From Candidatus Aldehydirespiratoraceae bacterium (GTDB taxonomy: Bacteria; Actinomycetota; Acidimicrobiia; Acidimicrobiales; Aldehydirespiratoraceae), in the NCBI GenBank assembly GCA_965208435.1, contig OZ242337.1, forward strand, positions 2,572,588-2,636,587: a stretch of 64,000 nucleotides of DNA. Reading direction: 5' to 3'. Each line of letters opens with the position of its first letter. Positions within the stretch are counted from its first letter, which is position 1. Positions 14,001 through 19,816 of the stretch are shown one piece after another. A program made the translations under genes and the position numbers. The notes beneath the pieces were generated by a model, which saw only the letters and a program-made list of their open reading frames with translations, was not told the DNA's origin and searched no databases.

Positions 14001-16421
14001 ATGCCCCGACAACTCGAGTTCGACTCCGGCTACGCCCGCGACGTCGTCGATGTGCCCGTCGCCGACGAGATGAGCGAGTCGTTCCTCGCCTACTCGCTGA
14101 GCGTCATCACCGCCAGGGCCATACCCGACGTGAGAGACGGCCTCAAACCGGTGCAGCGGCGGATCCTCTGGTCGATGCTGCAGATGGGGGTCCGCCCCGG
14201 CACTCCGTTCCGAAAGTCGGCCCGCATCGTCGGCGACACCATGGGCCGCTACCACCCCCACGGCGACTCCGCCATCTACGACACGCTGGTGCGGATGGGG
14301 CAGGACTTCTCGCGGATGCTCCCGTTCATCGACCCGCAGGGCAACTTCGGCTCCCTCGACGATCCGCCCGCAGCATCGCGCTACACCGAATGCCGCCTCG
14401 CCGCCCCGGCCATGGACATGGTCCGCGAGCTCGACGAGGACACTGTCGACTTCCGCGCCACCTACGACGGCGAGGGAGAGGAGCCGGTGGTGCTGCCCGC
14501 GGCGGTGCCCAACATCATCGTCAACGGCACCAGCGGGATCGCCGTGGGAATGGCCACCAACATGGCCCCGCACAACCTCCGTGAGGCAGCCGAACTGGTC
14601 AGGCTGGTGATGACCAGGCGGCGCCCCAAGCCGACCGTCGACGAGATGATGGAAGTGCTCCCCGGGCCCGACTTCCCGTCGGGCGGCATCGTGGTCAACG
14701 ACGGCCTGCGCGAGGCCTACGAGACCGGGCGCGGCTCGTTCCGGATCCGTGCGAAGGCCCACGTCGAGCAGGTCACCCGCTCACGTCAGGCGGTGGTCGT
14801 CACCGAGTTGCCGTACCTGGTCGGGCCCGAGCGGGTGATCAGCAAGGTCCAGGAACTCGCCAACAACGGCAGGCTCGCCGGGATCGCGGGCATCGCCGAC
14901 CTCAGCGACATGGAGGGGCTGCGCATCCAGATCGACCTGAAACCGGGCGTCAACCCGCAGCTCGCACTCCAGGACCTGTACCGGCTCACACCGCTCGAGG
15001 AGACGTTCGGAATCAACAATGTGGTGCTGGTCGACGGGGTGCCGACCACGCTCGGCATCGGTGACCTGTGCCGCCTCTACACCGAGCACCGCCTCGAGGT
15101 GATCGTCCGCCGCACCGAGTACCGCCTCGCCAAAGCACAGGACCGCCTGCACATCCTCGAGGGTCTGCTGGTCGCCCTCGACGCGATAGACGAGGTCGTC
15201 GCCATCATCCGAGGCTCCCAGGACGCCCCCGAAGCCCGGGTGAGGCTGATCGAGCGGTTCCTGCTTACAGACGTCCAGGCAGCGCACATCCTCGACATGC
15301 CGCTGCGTCGGCTCACCGCCCTGGCCAAGCTCGAACTCGAACAGGAGGCCACCGGACTGCGCGTCGACATTGCCGAGTATCACAAGCTGCTCAGCTCGGA
15401 GGCACGCCGCCGCACCCTCGTGCTCAAGGAGCTCGACGAGATCGTCGAGGCCCACGGGGTCCCGAGGCGCGCCGAGATCATCGAACCCGACAGCATCGTG
15501 GTACACGAACAGCCCGCGCCCGACGAATCCGAGACCGTGGGCGTCGATGAACCGTGCGTGGTGACCCTGTCGACGTCGGGGAATCTCGGCCGTGTTCCCA
15601 CCAACGGAGCGCGGCGGGCGACCGTGGGCCGTCACGATCTGATCGCGGCCCGCGCCATGACCACCACAGGCTCCGAGATCATGGCGGTCACCTCCGAGGG
15701 TCGAGCCGTCCCGGTGCGGGTCCGGGAGCTTCCTGATGCAACCGGACGTGCCCGCGGAGTGGCCGCATCGGCGCAGCTCGGGCTCAACAGGGGCGAGACG
15801 GTGCTGGCGCTGCTCACCGACGGCGACGAACGCCTGGTGCTCGTGACAGCCAACGGTGTGGTGAAAAGGCTGACCCTCGGCGAGGTGATGGGCACCAGAT
15901 CGTCTGCGACCGTGGTCTCGCTGAAGGGCAACGACCGGGTGGTCGCGGCGTTCCGGGCCCCCCTCGGCGTCGACATCGCCCTCGTTGCATCCGACGGCCA
16001 GGTGCTGCGCACACCCGTCGACGGCATCAACGACCAGGGTCGGGGCGCGGCCGGAGTCGCCGGCATGAGACTGCTCGGTGACGCCGAGGTCGTGGGCGCC
16101 GATGCGATGCTCGGAGACGGTGTGGTGCTGACCGTCACCAGCGCCGCAGGTGTCAAGGCGACGCCCTACAGCGACCTGTCGGCGAAGGGCCGTGGCGGCC
16201 AGGGAGTGCGGATCGCCCGGCTGGCCGAAGGCGAGACGGTCACCGGCGCCTGGTTCGGGCCTGCGGCGATGACCGACGTGTACTCGCTCATGGCCGACTA
16301 CGACGACCCCCGCAAGCTTGATCCCAACCCTGTGCCGCTCAACATCGACCCCAGCGCCCGCGACCTGGTGCCGAGCCGCACCGAGCGCCAGATCATGGTG
16401 GTTGCAGACGCCCGCTGGTAG
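14001..16421 (+). CDS. parC: type IIA topoisomerase subunit A (topoisomerase IV ParC-like)
   Basis: 806 aa with the DVRDGLKPVQRRILWSM motif and a beta-pinwheel C-terminal domain. The choice of ParC over GyrA rests on the QRRILW motif and the paired ParE-like gene nearby. Confidence 0.85.
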   Translation: MPRQLEFDSGYARDVVDVPVADEMSESFLAYSLSVITARAIPDVRDGLKPVQRRILWSMLQMGVRPGTPFRKSARIVGDTMGRYHPHGDSAIYDTLVRMGQDFSRMLPFIDPQGNFGSLDDPPAASRYTECRLAAPAMDMVRELDEDTVDFRATYDGEGEEPVVLPAAVPNIIVNGTSGIAVGMATNMAPHNLREAAELVRLVMTRRRPKPTVDEMMEVLPGPDFPSGGIVVNDGLREAYETGRGSFRIRAKAHVEQVTRSRQAVVVTELPYLVGPERVISKVQELANNGRLAGIAGIADLSDMEGLRIQIDLKPGVNPQLALQDLYRLTPLEETFGINNVVLVDGVPTTLGIGDLCRLYTEHRLEVIVRRTEYRLAKAQDRLHILEGLLVALDAIDEVVAIIRGSQDAPEARVRLIERFLLTDVQAAHILDMPLRRLTALAKLELEQEATGLRVDIAEYHKLLSSEARRRTLVLKELDEIVEAHGVPRRAEIIEPDSIVVHEQPAPDESETVGVDEPCVVTLSTSGNLGRVPTNGARRATVGRHDLIAARAMTTTGSEIMAVTSEGRAVPVRVRELPDATGRARGVAASAQLGLNRGETVLALLTDGDERLVLVTANGVVKRLTLGEVMGTRSSATVVSLKGNDRVVAAFRAPLGVDIALVASDGQVLRTPVDGINDQGRGAAGVAGMRLLGDAEVVGADAMLGDGVVLTVTSAAGVKATPYSDLSAKGRGGQGVRIARLAEGETVTGAWFGPAAMTDVYSLMADYDDPRKLDPNPVPLNIDPSARDLVPSRTERQIMVVADARW

Positions 16422-16493
16422 GTGACGGCGCGATGCTGTACCTCGGCTCGGCGACGAGCGTCAGATCATGGTGTTGCAGACGCCCGCTGGTAG
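16382..16493. repeat. direct duplication of the last ~40 nt of parC (including the stop)
   Basis: cgagcgccagatcatggtggttgcagacgcccgctggtag (16382-16421) recurs as cgagcgtcagatcatggtg-ttgcagacgcccgctggtag (16455-16493). Confidence 0.8.
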
Positions 16494-16562
16494 TGCCTCT
16501 CGGGTGGCTCGCCCCCCGCTGCCGGCTCGCCCCCCCCGCTGGTAGCGCTGCTCGGCACTCGG

Positions 16563-17672
16563 TCAGTTGAACTGATCGAGTCCTTCGATGATCCGCTGCT
16601 GTTGCGCGGAGTTGAAGCCGTTGAGAGGTTGGGTTCCTTCGGTCAGGTCGTGGCTGAGCAGGATCATCGAACTGTTCGTCCTGATTCCGTACTGGCGCCA
16701 GGTCGTGAACGACGGGTCCCAGACCATGGTCGGGGTCGTGACTCCGAGGCCGGTCACGAAATCGAGAGCCTGGTTGAAGTCGTCCTGGCCGCCCATGCCG
16801 ATGACCTGGATCTCGTTGATGTGTGTTCGAGCGAACTGCTCGACGTGCGGCGCCTCGCGCCGACAGGTCGGTCAATGAGGCGCCCAGAACCACAACAGCA
16901 CCGGACGGTCGCCGTCCACGGCGTCTGCCAGACTGGTGATCGACCCGTCGGCGACGTCGAGGACTTCGATGCGCCGCCGGTCGGTGTTTGGTTGCAACAA
17001 CGGGGCGTTGGCGGCCGCGGCGTCGAGGATCTCCTGTCGGGTCAGGGTCTTGGCCGTTGTGGTTGTCGGTGCGGCGGTGGTTGTCGTTGTGGCTGTTGTC
17101 GGACTGTCCGTGGTTGCCGGCGCGTCGGTGGTTGCTGACGTGTCGGTGATTGTCGGCGCGGCTGTTGTCGGCGCGGTTGTGGTTGTCGGCGCGGCTGTCG
17201 TTGCGGATGCCCCGGTGGTTGCCGGCGCGTCCGTGCCGGTTGCGTCTGTGTCTGAAGAGTCCGTGTCTGATGAGCCGGGGTCGGTTGCGTCTGTGTCCGT
17301 CTGCGGAATCGTGGTCGTGGACACTTCGGCTGTGCTGTCGGTGGTTGTCGGTGCGGTGGTCTCGGTCGGCGCGGGGTCGGATGGAAGGGTCGCTTCCGGG
17401 CTGTCGCCGTCGGCTGTCGTCGGTGCTGCGGTGTCCTGGACAGGTTCGCTCCCGCCCTCGCCTCGGCCTTCACCATTGCCCCCGTCCTGTGGTCCGGTCG
17501 TTGCGTATTCCGGGGTGAGGGGCGGGAGCGTGGTCGTCGCGAAACCGGCGTCTCCGGAACCGTCGGGCCCTGAAGAGTCGTCGCCGCCACAAGCCGCGGC
17601 AACGCTCGCGAACACAACGGTGATCGCTAGGGTGAACGCAGGGAGTCGGCGGATCTGCAAGACCTCAATCAT
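16563..17672 (-). CDS. TlpA/ResA-like thioredoxin-fold lipoprotein with in-frame UGA at the first CxxC position (candidate selenoprotein)
   Basis: ORFs 16872..17813 and 16563..16796 are in the same frame and contiguous, giving ...PVLLWFWAPH-[TGA 16872-16874]-PTCRREAPHVEQFARTHINEIQVIGMGGQDD.... The N-terminus has a lipobox (VAAAC) followed by a long T/A/P/D-rich linker. The start is taken at MIEVLQIRRLP. Confidence 0.7.
16841..16870 (-). promoter_or_regulatory. candidate bacterial SECIS hairpin
   Basis: In the mRNA, UGA is followed by C and then the hairpin CGAC-C-UGU-C-GGCGC-GAG-GCGCC-GCA-C-GUCG. That gives 12 bp with one C/C mismatch and one bulged C. The G-containing apical loop lies about 16-18 nt after the UGA. 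Confidence 0.45.
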
Positions 17673-17752
17673 AACCAAATCCGCTCCCCTGTCACCCGTG
17701 CCTAGTACGGTGTTGCGAACACCCGTTCGTTGACCGCCCACCCTCTGTATTC

Positions 17753-19816
17753 TTGGATTCCGACTTGGCCACAACCACCACAACCGCTTACGACGCTGAC
17801 GCGATCGAGACACTTGAAGGCTTGGAGGCCGTGCGTAAACGGCCGGGCATGTACATCGGCGGCACGGGCAGCGCGGGGCTCATGCACCTCGTGTGGGAAC
17901 TGATCGACAATGCCGTCGACGAGGCCGCTGCGGGCTTCGCGACCAAGGTCGACGTCACCCTGCACCGCGACAGGTCGGTGGAGGTCAGCGACAACGGCCG
18001 CGGCATCCCCATCGACCGCCACGCCAAGCGCAAGGTTTCAGCGGTCGAGGTCGTGTTCACGGAGCTGCACGCGGGGGGCAAGTTCGGTGGCGGCGCGTAT
18101 TCGTCGTCGGGCGGCCTTCACGGGGTGGGGGCGTCGGTCGTCAACGCCCTGGCCACCAGACTGGTCGTCGAGGTCGACCGTGACGGCGGCACCCATGTCC
18201 TCGGCTTCAAAGACCGTGTGGCGGGCCAGTTCAACGGTTCGAACAACTTCAAGGCCGGCCATCAACTCCAGAAGCTCAAGCGCGTCTCCAAGAACCGGAC
18301 GGGCACGCGGGTGCGTTTCTGGCCCGATTTCGAGATTTTCGACCCCGATGCCCGCGTCGACTTCGACAAGGTCTGCGATCGTGTGACGCAGGCGTGCTTC
18401 CTGGTGCCCGGGATGCGGGTCTCGGTCACCGACAGACGAGCGGGTGGCGCTGCCGAGCCGTTCGTGTTCGTCAGCAGGGGAGGTCTCGCCGACCTCGTCG
18501 ACCACCTTTCCGACTCTCCGCCGGTCAGCGCGGTCATCACGGGCAACGGCATCGACACCTTCGTTGAGAAGGTGCCGGTCAACAAGAAGATGACCGACGT
18601 CACCAGGGAGTGCACCGTCGACATCGCTCTGCGCTGGGTCGACGGCTACGACACGAAGGTGGTGTCGTTCGTCAACACCATCCCCACTTCCCAGGGCGGG
18701 ACCCACGTTGCTGGATTCGACAAGGCGCTCACCCGCGTGGTCAACAGTGTGCTGCTCAAGGACCACCACAAACTGGCCAAGCTCGCCAAGCAGAACAAGC
18801 ACAAGGCCGTCAAGGACGATGTGCAGGAGGGCCTTGTTGCGGCGCTGAAAGTGACCTTTGCGGAGCCCCAGTTCCGCGGGCAGACCAAACAGGAACTGGG
18901 CACTCCCGCAATCGACGGGATTGTCAGCCGGGTGGTGTATGAACAGCTCAAGGAGTGGTTCGAGCCCGGTGGCGGGCCCCGCAGCCATGTCAAGGCGATC
19001 GCCGACAAGCTGTCGAACGCGGTGCAGAACCGTGTGGCCTCCAAGACGCTGCTGGAGAACCAGCGCAAGGCTGCGAGCCTCGGTTCGACCGGAATGCCCC
19101 AGAAGCTCGCCGACTGCCGGGTCCACGGCATGGACTCGGAGCTGATCCTGGTGGAGGGGGACTCGGCGGCCGGCCCTGCCAAGCGGGGCCGCGACTCCGA
19201 GACGATGGCGATCCTGCCGCTGCGGGGCAAGGTGGTCAATGCCCACAAGGCGACCGAGAAGCAGGTGCTCGACAACGCCGAGGCGACCGCGTTGTTCACT
19301 GCGCTCGGCGCTGGGGCCGGCCGCAAGTTCAACATCGCAGACGCCCGCTACGGCCGCATTGTGATCCTGTGCGACGCCGATGTCGACGGCAGCCATATCC
19401 GGTGCCTGCTGCTGACGCTGATCTACAAGTACCTGCGGCCGATGCTCGAGGCGGGGCGGGTGTTCGCGGCCCAGCCACCGCTGTTCACGACCAAGGTCGG
19501 CGACGAGACCTACCGGGTCTACTCCGAGGAGGAGAAGGAGGCGGTGACCGACGAACTGTGCAGGGGAAACCGCCGCCGCGAGAACATCAAGTGGCAGCGT
19601 TTCAAGGGTCTCGGCGAGATGAACGTCGACGAGCTCCGTCATTGCGCCCTCGATCCCAACACCCGCACTCTGCGCCGGCTCACCATGGACGACGGCGCGC
19701 AGACCAAGCAGGCCCTGGAGATGTTCGAGGTGCTGATGGGCACCGACGTGTCGAGCAGGCGCGACTTCCTGATCCGCAACAGCGCACTGGTGGACAGCAC
19801 GATCCTCGACGTCTAG
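17753..19816 (+). CDS. parE: type IIA topoisomerase subunit B (ParE-like)
   Basis: 687 aa with the GHKL ATPase motif GLMHLVWELIDNAVDE and the TOPRIM motif ELILVEGDSAAG. Confidence 0.9.
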   Translation: MDSDLATTTTTAYDADAIETLEGLEAVRKRPGMYIGGTGSAGLMHLVWELIDNAVDEAAAGFATKVDVTLHRDRSVEVSDNGRGIPIDRHAKRKVSAVEVVFTELHAGGKFGGGAYSSSGGLHGVGASVVNALATRLVVEVDRDGGTHVLGFKDRVAGQFNGSNNFKAGHQLQKLKRVSKNRTGTRVRFWPDFEIFDPDARVDFDKVCDRVTQACFLVPGMRVSVTDRRAGGAAEPFVFVSRGGLADLVDHLSDSPPVSAVITGNGIDTFVEKVPVNKKMTDVTRECTVDIALRWVDGYDTKVVSFVNTIPTSQGGTHVAGFDKALTRVVNSVLLKDHHKLAKLAKQNKHKAVKDDVQEGLVAALKVTFAEPQFRGQTKQELGTPAIDGIVSRVVYEQLKEWFEPGGGPRSHVKAIADKLSNAVQNRVASKTLLENQRKAASLGSTGMPQKLADCRVHGMDSELILVEGDSAAGPAKRGRDSETMAILPLRGKVVNAHKATEKQVLDNAEATALFTALGAGAGRKFNIADARYGRIVILCDADVDGSHIRCLLLTLIYKYLRPMLEAGRVFAAQPPLFTTKVGDETYRVYSEEEKEAVTDELCRGNRRRENIKWQRFKGLGEMNVDELRHCALDPNTRTLRRLTMDDGAQTKQALEMFEVLMGTDVSSRRDFLIRNSALVDSTILDV

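Follow-up and report, generated by a model that had tools for sequence, protein, structure and literature searches.

The locus and its interrupted reading frame

The DNA analysed here is a stretch of 64,000 nucleotides (referred to as the window) from a Candidatus Aldehydirespiratoraceae bacterium of the class Acidimicrobiia (contig OZ242337.1), and the gene under study is located on its minus strand, from position 17672 to position 16563. Translation of this interval revealed a single reading frame with one internal stop codon, a TGA at 16874-16872, which is preceded by DGDRPVLLWFWAPH and followed by PTCRREAPHVEQFARTH. The list of open reading frames (ORFs) breaks the gene into two ORFs (16872..17813 and 16563..16796) that share one frame, and the initial annotation, which had claimed precisely this split at 16872-16874, was hence borne out by both the translation and the ORF list. 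Within the redox motif WFWAPH-U-PTC, the TGA occupies the first position of the CxxC motif, and as this column aligns with the catalytic cysteine (Cys) of DsbF and DsbE, the earlier placement of the codon at the nucleophilic Cys holds. Considering the conservation of TGA at this column, the existence of a selenocysteine/cysteine (Sec/Cys) pair, an RNA hairpin confined to the Sec forms and the sel genes of related genomes, it was concluded that the codon is very probably decoded as Sec within one intact gene, as had been proposed earlier for the UxxC motif of a thioredoxin-fold protein. With high confidence, the gene product was assigned by sequence comparison to the exported thiol-disulfide oxidoreductases of the actinobacterial DsbE/DsbF (TlpA-like) type, with U-P-T-C as its predicted active site.

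The probable start codon is the ATG at 17672; other possible starts are a GTG at 17813, with which the mechanically derived ORF opens, and a TTG a few codons inside, and the orthologue at the homologous locus L001 was called from the equivalent signal peptide. The terminal stop codon of the gene, 102 codons past the internal one, is also a TGA (16565-16563), which implies that UGA is an ordinary stop codon in this organism and has not been reassigned.

The in-frame TGA in homologous sequences

When the domain, with U replaced by C, was searched against 5.8 billion predicted proteins, 41 matches were obtained, all of which are fragments. Together with the two calls per locus present in the gene tables, this agrees with the earlier expectation that annotation pipelines would call a truncated gene plus a fragment. 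The N-terminal pieces stop at ...DGDRPVL[LI]WF[WYF][AS]PH in 16 of the 16 cases inspected and come from quite different sequences, and two C-terminal pieces open at V/M-C-R-G-E-A-P, i.e., two codons past the stop. At the DNA level, both L001, which shares the gene neighbourhood of the window, and L002, which has another context, were found to carry TGA with an open frame beyond it.

Searching a genome collection identified 69 loci, almost all of them in metagenome-assembled genomes (MAGs) of Acidimicrobiia. Among the loci L001 to L073, 54 distinct sequences possess TGA at the column in question and all of these stay in frame, next to 22 distinct sequences with TGC or TGT; these counts are subject to a sampling bias, as the peptide patterns used for the genome collection forced either a Cys or the VEQFAR motif. 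This bias was corrected by scanning metagenome DNA with a pattern that fixed P-x-x-x-W-F-[WYF]-[AS]-P-H, accepted any T[A/G]N codon, required the second Cys and left the region after the CxxC motif unconstrained. The resulting 116 distinct sequences comprise 104 with TGA and 12 with TGC or TGT, and no TAA, TAG, TGG or TAY codon was found at the column among them. Pooling of both sources yielded 156 distinct Sec forms, almost all labelled Acidimicrobiia, and 36 distinct Cys forms, whereby the Sec forms have a median of 98 codons from the TGA to the next stop and keep the full thioredoxin fold in frame. Inspection of the orthologous codon, a check that had been proposed along with the Sec prediction, thus returned TGA in each of the 156 Sec forms and no other stop codon. 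As TGA recurs in many independent assemblies, neither faulty assembly nor a recent nonsense mutation can account for it, and as domain identity among the TGA sequences ranges from 34 to 88%, these sequences do not stem from one contaminating template.

The Cys forms (TGC or TGT) share the WFWAPH-C-xx-C context and thereby constitute the Cys counterpart of a Sec/Cys pair. With the residues encoded by the selenocysteine insertion sequence (SECIS) masked, both types were found to cluster apart, the nearest neighbour being a Sec form for 140 of 142 Sec forms and a Cys form for 36 of 37 Cys forms. As judged from these comparisons, the Cys set is a group of more distant, separately clustering homologues. 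A few Cys forms are nearest to Sec forms, namely L277 and L349 with 66-67% identity and L024 with about 50%. L277 keeps a degenerated copy of the hairpin described below as hairpin 2 (GTTGAGGAGTTTGCTCAA), whose closing pair is gone, and because this decayed copy is retained, L277 suggests a Sec-to-Cys reversion accompanied by a decaying SECIS.

As a separate observation, many genomes carry two TGA paralogues 0.6-2.1 kb apart, each with its own hairpin 2 (loci L020, L022, L023, L026, L030, L034, L035, L061, L067, L322, L324, L357, L382 and L383).

RNA structures downstream of the TGA

Two hairpins follow the internal TGA and are referred to as hairpin 1 and hairpin 2, with nucleotides counted from the U of the UGA. 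Hairpin 2 resides immediately 3' of hairpin 1 and overlaps the 3' base of the latter; in the window, its stability yielded p = 0.004 upon synonymous-codon resampling. Its family consensus reads (U)CGAGC-AGUUY-GCUCG(A), with the loop beginning 34 nt past the UGA. Pairs 33:47 to 37:43 are formed in 98-100% of the 156 Sec forms vs 17-47% of the Cys forms, 146 of these Sec forms possess the loop AGUUC or AGUUU, and 97.4% of all hairpin 2 cells are paired, compared with 30-45% for controls in which the pairing partner was slid. Compensatory changes were identified at two pairs: 33:47 changes from CG to UA in 12 sequences (GUC..CGA to GUU..CAA, Arg to Gln) and 35:45 from AU to GC in 8 (GAG..GCU to GGG..GCC, Glu to Gly). 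RNAalifold predicts hairpin 2 as the sole consensus helix, and synonymous resampling gave a mean z of -3.04 for the Sec forms, 90% of which reach p<=0.05, vs +0.08 for the Cys forms, from which the hairpin is absent.

Codon choice within hairpin 2 departs from that in the remainder of the same genes. Here, Ala is encoded by GCU in 95% (background 9%) and Arg by CGA in 71% (background 15%), whereas GAA for Glu (0/137, background 27%) and CAA for Gln (0/143, background 22%) do not occur and GUG for Val is found twice in 146 cases (1%, background 41%). This bias at synonymous sites documents selection acting on the RNA and not on the protein. For bacterial SECIS elements, the published limits are 3-9 nt for the loop, 4-16 bp for the stem and 16-37 nt for the spacing between UGA and loop, with a G within the first two loop positions that is usually followed by G or U (PMC13188914). 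Hairpin 2, possessing a 5-nt loop with G-U at loop positions 2-3, a stem of 5-6 bp and a spacing of 34 nt, falls within these limits. In the systems studied, SelB recognizes its target sequence-specifically, and an invariant hairpin 2 fits such recognition better than hairpin 1 does. Based on this sequence evidence, hairpin 2 was regarded as the likely candidate for the SelB-binding core of the SECIS.

Hairpin 1 is the structure which had been pointed out in the initial annotation, and the minimum-energy fold indeed contains the 12-bp hairpin described there for 16841-16870, composed of 4+2+6 pairs and a GAG loop at nt 19-21. In the window alone, it is only marginally unusual: the 66-nt minimum free energy amounts to -22.7 kcal/mol (z = -1.81; 10 of 200 dinucleotide shuffles fold equally well), and upon resampling of synonymous codons, p was 0.06 for the complete hairpin and 0.018 for the core. 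The sequence, which is encoded by the codons C-R-R-E-A-P, covaries in examples such as cggcgc/gcgccg, cgtcggg/cccgacg and tcaggcg/cgcctga, and for pair 15:29 CG was counted 21 times, UA 17 times and GC 16 times. However, the register is not fixed across the family, as pairing amounts to 65% of the cells in one register and to 51% in that of the window, and the RNAalifold consensus did not recover a helix at this place. Furthermore, the nucleotides that build the lower stem in the window (GUCG, nt 31-34) are shared with the 5' arm of hairpin 2, which prevents both hairpins from forming fully at the same time.

The most serious alternative to the assignment made above accepts the insertion of Sec and assumes that SelB binds hairpin 1 (16870-16841; loop GAG/GAAGC, nt 19-24), with hairpin 2 being accessory or conserved for another reason. 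This idea draws on a loop which resides at a distance resembling that in E. coli fdhF and which begins with G in the window as well as in the family consensus, on the signal obtained by resampling of synonymous codons in the Sec forms (mean z -1.35, 32% at p<=0.05) and not in the Cys forms (+0.08), and on the covariation of pair 15:29. The shifting register, a loop varying in both sequence and size, the missing consensus helix and a spacing in the window that, at 15 nt, falls slightly short of the published 16-37 nt argue the other way, as does the sequence-specific mode of SelB recognition, which favours the invariant hairpin 2. Taken together, binding of SelB to hairpin 1 was considered rather improbable, and hairpin 1 was rejected as the primary conserved SECIS given its varying register and the lack of an RNAalifold helix; instead, it probably represents an auxiliary or spacer helix. 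Of the earlier proposal that 16841-16870 is the SECIS, it remains that this hairpin is real and under selection, albeit weaker, while the role of best candidate passes to hairpin 2 (16843-16827), which had gone unmentioned there. The conserved, covarying hairpin that had been asked for is correspondingly represented by hairpin 2, with compensatory changes found exclusively in Sec forms, whereas hairpin 1 covaries in an unfixed register.

Sec-decoding machinery in Acidimicrobiia

In the Cys-form locus L056, the N-terminus of a translation GTPase passes the NCBIfam selB model TIGR00475 (253.7 vs 242.25). Using this SelB fragment as query, 80 loci were obtained, most of them from Acidimicrobiia and the rest mainly from Chloroflexota, whereby selA adjoins selB in 55 of the 80 and selD and tRNA-Sec are located alongside in several. 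The tRNA-Sec was found to be highly conserved across Acidimicrobiia. A first pattern scan for it identified at least five genomes with the TGA form that also possess tRNA-Sec, one of them on the same chromosome (OZ245048.1), and two further MAGs carry the TGA form together with selA-selB. A narrower pattern gave 97 matches, and ARAGORN calls tRNA-SeC(tca) in all 89 of the 89 new loci. Among the genomes thus recovered are eight close relatives which carry the orthologous TGA gene. In four of them, this gene and the tRNA reside on one chromosome or contig (OZ240617.1, OZ242187.1, OZ243951.1 and CBDFKX010000002.1), and in the other four they belong to one MAG (CATOTC01, JAHQYN01, JAKZTU01 and CBDCSG01). 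For three of the eight (JAHQYN01, CATOTC01 and OZ243951.1), nucleotide identity with the window amounts to about 92% in the topoisomerase genes on either side. The search for Sec machinery, by which the prediction was to be judged, hence returned tRNA-Sec in the closest relatives and selA, selB and selD in the class Acidimicrobiia.

These findings bear on a second alternative, according to which the UGA is recoded to a residue other than Sec, either because the hairpins help a near-cognate tRNA (Trp or Cys) to read the stop codon or because UGA is reassigned in the lineage. Downstream RNA structures can stimulate the readthrough of stop codons in other systems, and the Sec reading is itself a prediction from sequence. 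Yet the gene ends with a functional TGA stop, the recoded site coincides with the catalytic Cys of a CxxC motif and is a Cys in homologues, the lineage possesses tRNA-Sec, selA, selB and selD, and the G-U in the loop of hairpin 2 is typical of a bacterial SECIS, rendering recoding without Sec very unlikely.

Several further observations were made on the sel loci. For loci L155 and L225, no shared synteny was found around tRNA-Sec and no sel genes adjoin either tRNA. Usage of Sec in Acidimicrobiia was recently noted in an Actinomarina preprint, in which a Sec-containing SelD was reported. In the loci examined here, SelD encoded beside selB and tRNA-Sec (L075, L087, L098, L113 and L118) is a Cys form with GGGC or CGGC, and SelD as a second selenoprotein and source of a further SECIS in Acidimicrobiia was rejected, as five of the five examined are Cys forms. 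Contigs with tRNA-Sec or SelB of the Acidimicrobiia type were also encountered in MAGs labelled Gammaproteobacteria, Bifidobacterium or Actinomyces (L399 of VXNP01, L423 of CAXMSE01, L095 of CAZWCU01, L121 of CAMAYS01 and L437 of RFFY01), which probably reflects mis-binning or mislabelling.

Fold, export and gene partners of the protein

With the stop replaced by C, the last 140 residues of the protein exceed the Pfam gathering thresholds of AhpC-TSA (34.0 vs 26), Redoxin (32.8 vs 26.6) and Thioredoxin (24.9 vs 23.5). A family profile compared with solved structures identified M. tuberculosis DsbF (3IOS, E 1.5e-24) and DsbE/MPT53 (1LU4, E 2e-21) as the best matches, both ranking well above thioredoxins, ResA and CcmG; the TlpA-like thioredoxin fold recognized earlier is supported by these matches together with those in Pfam. 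None of the NCBIfam equivalogs for DsbE, ResA, StoA and TlpA is near its cut-off, scores being 17-35 bits against cut-offs of 123-359, with 35.2 (cut-off 359) and 34.4 (123) for DsbE, 22.3 (170) for ResA and 17.5 (230) for TlpA.

Most relatives inspected possess a signal peptide ending in a canonical lipobox (LAAC, LTAC or LAGC), from which an extracytoplasmic, membrane-tethered location was inferred; on the basis of its own N-terminal sequence, the window protein is probably exported and lipid-anchored at Cys28. One relative, P0003, which is 89% identical over the aligned N-terminal piece, has a twin-arginine motif (FSRRRFLG) followed by the lipobox LTAC, and other members have Sec-type export signals, so family members may use different export routes. 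In many Cys forms (L028, L041, L048, L054-L059, L062, L063 and L071) and several Sec forms (L021, L284, L291, L297, L298, L304, L329, L338 and L362), the next gene downstream is of the ccdA type, which suggests that at least some members act in a reducing pathway. A ccdA homologue was not found in the 64-kb window, and none lies beside the gene in close relatives.

A further alternative is a selenium-dependent switch, in which the main product would be a truncated lipoprotein of 266 residues, the full-length protein would be formed only with selenium and the UGA would chiefly serve regulation. At bacterial UGA codons, termination competes with Sec insertion, and the long exported linker of the N-terminal part could stand alone. 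Such a truncation would however take place inside the first strand and the active-site turn and leave no conserved domain behind, the linker is poorly conserved in both length and sequence, and all conservation is located downstream of the UGA; consequently, a switch of this kind is hardly to be expected.

Proposed mechanism and weight of the evidence

For synthesis of the full-length protein, we infer that selenium is inserted at the internal UGA and that SelB is bound by hairpin 2 and not by hairpin 1. The suggested mechanism assumes that an mRNA structure located within the coding sequence recruits SelB-GTP with its Sec-tRNA(Sec) once the ribosome has arrived at UGA267, the likeliest SelB-binding element being hairpin 2 with its (U)CGAGC-AGUUY-GCUCG(A) consensus. 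Here, the variable, GC-rich hairpin 1 would occupy the gap from the UGA to hairpin 2. Next, translation would run through 102 further residues to the true stop codon, TGA 16565-16563. On the outer side of the membrane, disulfides of the substrate are then expected to be attacked by the selenolate at the N-terminus of helix 1, which may alternatively form a selenenylsulfide with Cys270; for some family members, the CcdA-type membrane protein encoded immediately downstream is the probable electron partner, so that the redox direction would be a reducing one in these cases.

A number of points weigh against Sec insertion via hairpin 2 into a DsbE/DsbF-type lipoprotein. As for the decoding machinery, neither selA, selB, selD nor a tRNA-Sec was detected in the 64-kb window, for which ARAGORN and tblastn with E. 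coli SelA, SelB and SelD queries were used and where the sole tRNA is a tRNA-Ala; moreover, the evidence from the closest relatives consists of tRNA-Sec only, with selA, selB and selD coming from other Acidimicrobiia, and the sequences compared are nearly all derived from MAGs or metagenome contigs. As for the SECIS, the spacing of hairpin 2 is near the upper published limit, and it is hairpin 1, also under some selection, whose loop (nt 19-24) resides at an E. coli-like distance. Rfam searches of the whole window at the gathering threshold and of 16760-16920 at E<=10 gave neither a SECIS nor another relevant family, and neither hairpin is matched by an Rfam family. A hairpin of the type of hairpin 2 following an in-frame TGA was likewise not found in other genes within 3.8 Mb of fetched loci, this search returning out-of-frame artefacts in the same gene and unrelated chance matches only, so that the data do not establish hairpin 2 as a SelB motif of the whole lineage. 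As for the protein, the lipobox of the window is non-canonical (VAAAC|GG, i.e., ...FASVAAA-C with Ala at -3), and at the cis-proline position the subclade of the window has N-S where the other members of alignment A2, both Sec and Cys forms, have Q-P. A cis-proline is almost universal in thioredoxin-fold oxidoreductases, and given its loss, the chemistry of the window subclade may differ from that of DsbE and DsbF. The N-S site corresponds to 16650-16670 of the window (residues ...GIRTNSSMILL...), and the tail of this subclade is longer (F-x-G-F...QQ..I...L).

That the gene is a pseudogene, or carries a recent nonsense mutation or assembly error, with a terminating TGA and a dead downstream part, matches its treatment by gene callers in every database entry and is compatible with the window by itself, but can practically be dismissed in view of the identical TGA shared by 156 distinct sequences, which represent many families and independent assemblies, of a protein conserved past a column free of TAA and TAG, and of the selection on an RNA hairpin 3' of the stop.

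Relation to known systems and significance

Among the selenoproteins predicted in bacteria, no class is more common than the proteins with a thioredoxin fold and a UxxC motif. A thiol-disulfide isomerase-like UxxC family (cd02966) was predicted in 2005 from the Sargasso Sea metagenome (Zhang, Fomenko, Gladyshev; PMC1088965), and Table 1 of a 2026 review of the prokaryotic selenoproteome lists this family along with a Prx-like thiol:disulfide oxidoreductase (PF00578) and a UGC-containing TlpA family (PMC13188914). By its family description, the window gene likely belongs to the Sargasso Sea family, with which it shares the TlpA-like fold, Sec at the first position of UxxC, widespread Cys homologues, a stem-loop after the UGA, an occurrence in aquatic or marine bacteria and a characterization by sequence only. 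The clade described here differs in that Sec forms outnumber Cys forms (104 vs 12 in the metagenome sample of the WF[WYF][AS]PH clade), in its near-exclusive restriction to Acidimicrobiia, in its predicted lipoprotein architecture and in the two-hairpin element.

DsbF (Rv1677) and DsbE/MPT53 (Rv2878c) closely resemble the window protein in their active site (WFWAPWCPTCQGEAP vs WFWAPHUPTCRREAP) and are likewise exported actinobacterial proteins with a signal peptide. In contrast to the window protein, both possess Cys and not Sec, lack an in-frame UGA and a SECIS, have Trp instead of His preceding the catalytic residue and keep the cis-Pro, which is Ser in the window subclade. Rv2877c, encoded beside dsbE, is a membrane protein of the CcdA/MerT-like type and would thus be a counterpart of the ccdA neighbour present in part of the family described here. 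The same neighbour, the fold and the extracytoplasmic membrane anchoring are shared in part with ResA, CcmG(DsbE) and TlpA acting with CcdA or DsbD, from which the family differs by NCBIfam scores far below cut-off and, as regards the window copy, by the absence of a ccdA neighbour. Compared with the E. coli fdhF SECIS and the bSECISearch model, the common principle is a stem-loop that closely follows the UGA within the coding region, whereas the far spacing of hairpin 2, the variable hairpin preceding it and the lack of sequence similarity set the element apart from the E. coli ones.

UxxC selenoproteins of the TlpA-like type have been predicted since 2005, and the gene is an additional predicted member that leaves the general picture unchanged; what may be new detail is the affinity to DsbE/DsbF, the predicted lipoprotein architecture, the predominance of Sec and the two-hairpin element. 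The value of the finding resides chiefly in annotation and in a SECIS model for Acidimicrobiia. An exported redox enzyme, abundant in aquatic, soil and sponge-associated members of this class, is missing from annotations and selenoproteome counts because every public gene call inspected is split or truncated at the Sec codon. Hairpin 2, defined by compensatory changes and codon bias, provides a concrete SECIS model for a class whose usage of Sec is newly described, and at the same time a clean case of an RNA element that constrains a protein sequence.

A more far-reaching idea, for which the odds appear unfavourable at present, combines these features. It assumes that the invariant hairpin 2 and the variable spacer hairpin jointly constitute a lineage-specific class of SECIS tuned to the SelB of Acidimicrobiia, which forces the V-E-Q-F-A-R sequence upon the protein, that the Sec form would be the norm in this surface-anchored selenoenzyme, and that the marine subclade to which the window belongs, being devoid of the cis-proline, would perform a chemistry unlike that of classical DsbE or ResA. 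If this were true, the exchanges E to G and R to Q within V-E-Q-F-A-R would be tolerated only alongside the compensating base changes.

Sequence features and gene neighbourhood

The features of the gene are compiled in Table 1. The length of the linker that separates the signal peptide from the thioredoxin-fold domain differs greatly among orthologues and is much shorter in L002 and in relatives from the protein search; within the window linker, positions 17059-17229 contain degenerate tandem repeats of 18, 33 and 69 nt, which encode (A/T)PTTT-like units.

Table 1. Position of the predicted selenoprotein gene and its features in the window; nt, nucleotides counted from the U of the UGA as 1
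Feature	Position	Strand	Remarks
Complete predicted selenoprotein coding sequence	16563..17672	-	369 residues plus Sec267; terminal TGA stop 16565-16563
Putative signal peptide with lipobox-like end	17589..17672	-	MIEVLQIRRLPAFTLAITVVFASVAAA-C28, read from sequence
Low-complexity Thr/Pro/Ala/Asp-rich linker, residues 29-207	17052..17588	-	Degenerate tandem repeats at DNA level
Thioredoxin-fold (TlpA/DsbE/DsbF-like) domain, residues 232-369	16566..16979	-	Contains the Sec codon; Pfam and structure profile matches
In-frame UGA, predicted Sec codon U267	16872..16874	-	Position 1 of UxxC; TGA in 156 distinct relatives
TGT, Cys270, predicted resolving cysteine of U-P-T-C	16863..16865	-	Invariant in alignment A2
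Hairpin 1	16841..16870	-	nt 5-34; core CGGCGC-GAG-GCGCCG at 16862-16848
Hairpin 2, candidate SECIS core	16827..16843	-	nt 32-48; UCGAGC-AGUUC-GCUCGA; encodes V-E-Q-F-A-R; loop 16837-16833

The gene is located on the opposite strand between a GyrA/ParC-like gene (14001-16421, plus strand) and a GyrB-like gene (17753-19816, plus strand). This topoisomerase-flanked arrangement is kept in L001, and further neighbours include a PDDEXK nuclease, a ParA-like protein, a ferrochelatase and Fpg. The last approximately 40 nt of the GyrA/ParC-like gene, including its stop codon (16382-16421), are near-exactly duplicated 73 nt downstream (16455-16493), the copy residing in the spacer between the two convergent genes. 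Close to this duplicated gene end, the 12-nt motif GGCTCGCCCCCC occurs twice, at 16506-16517 and at 16524-16535.

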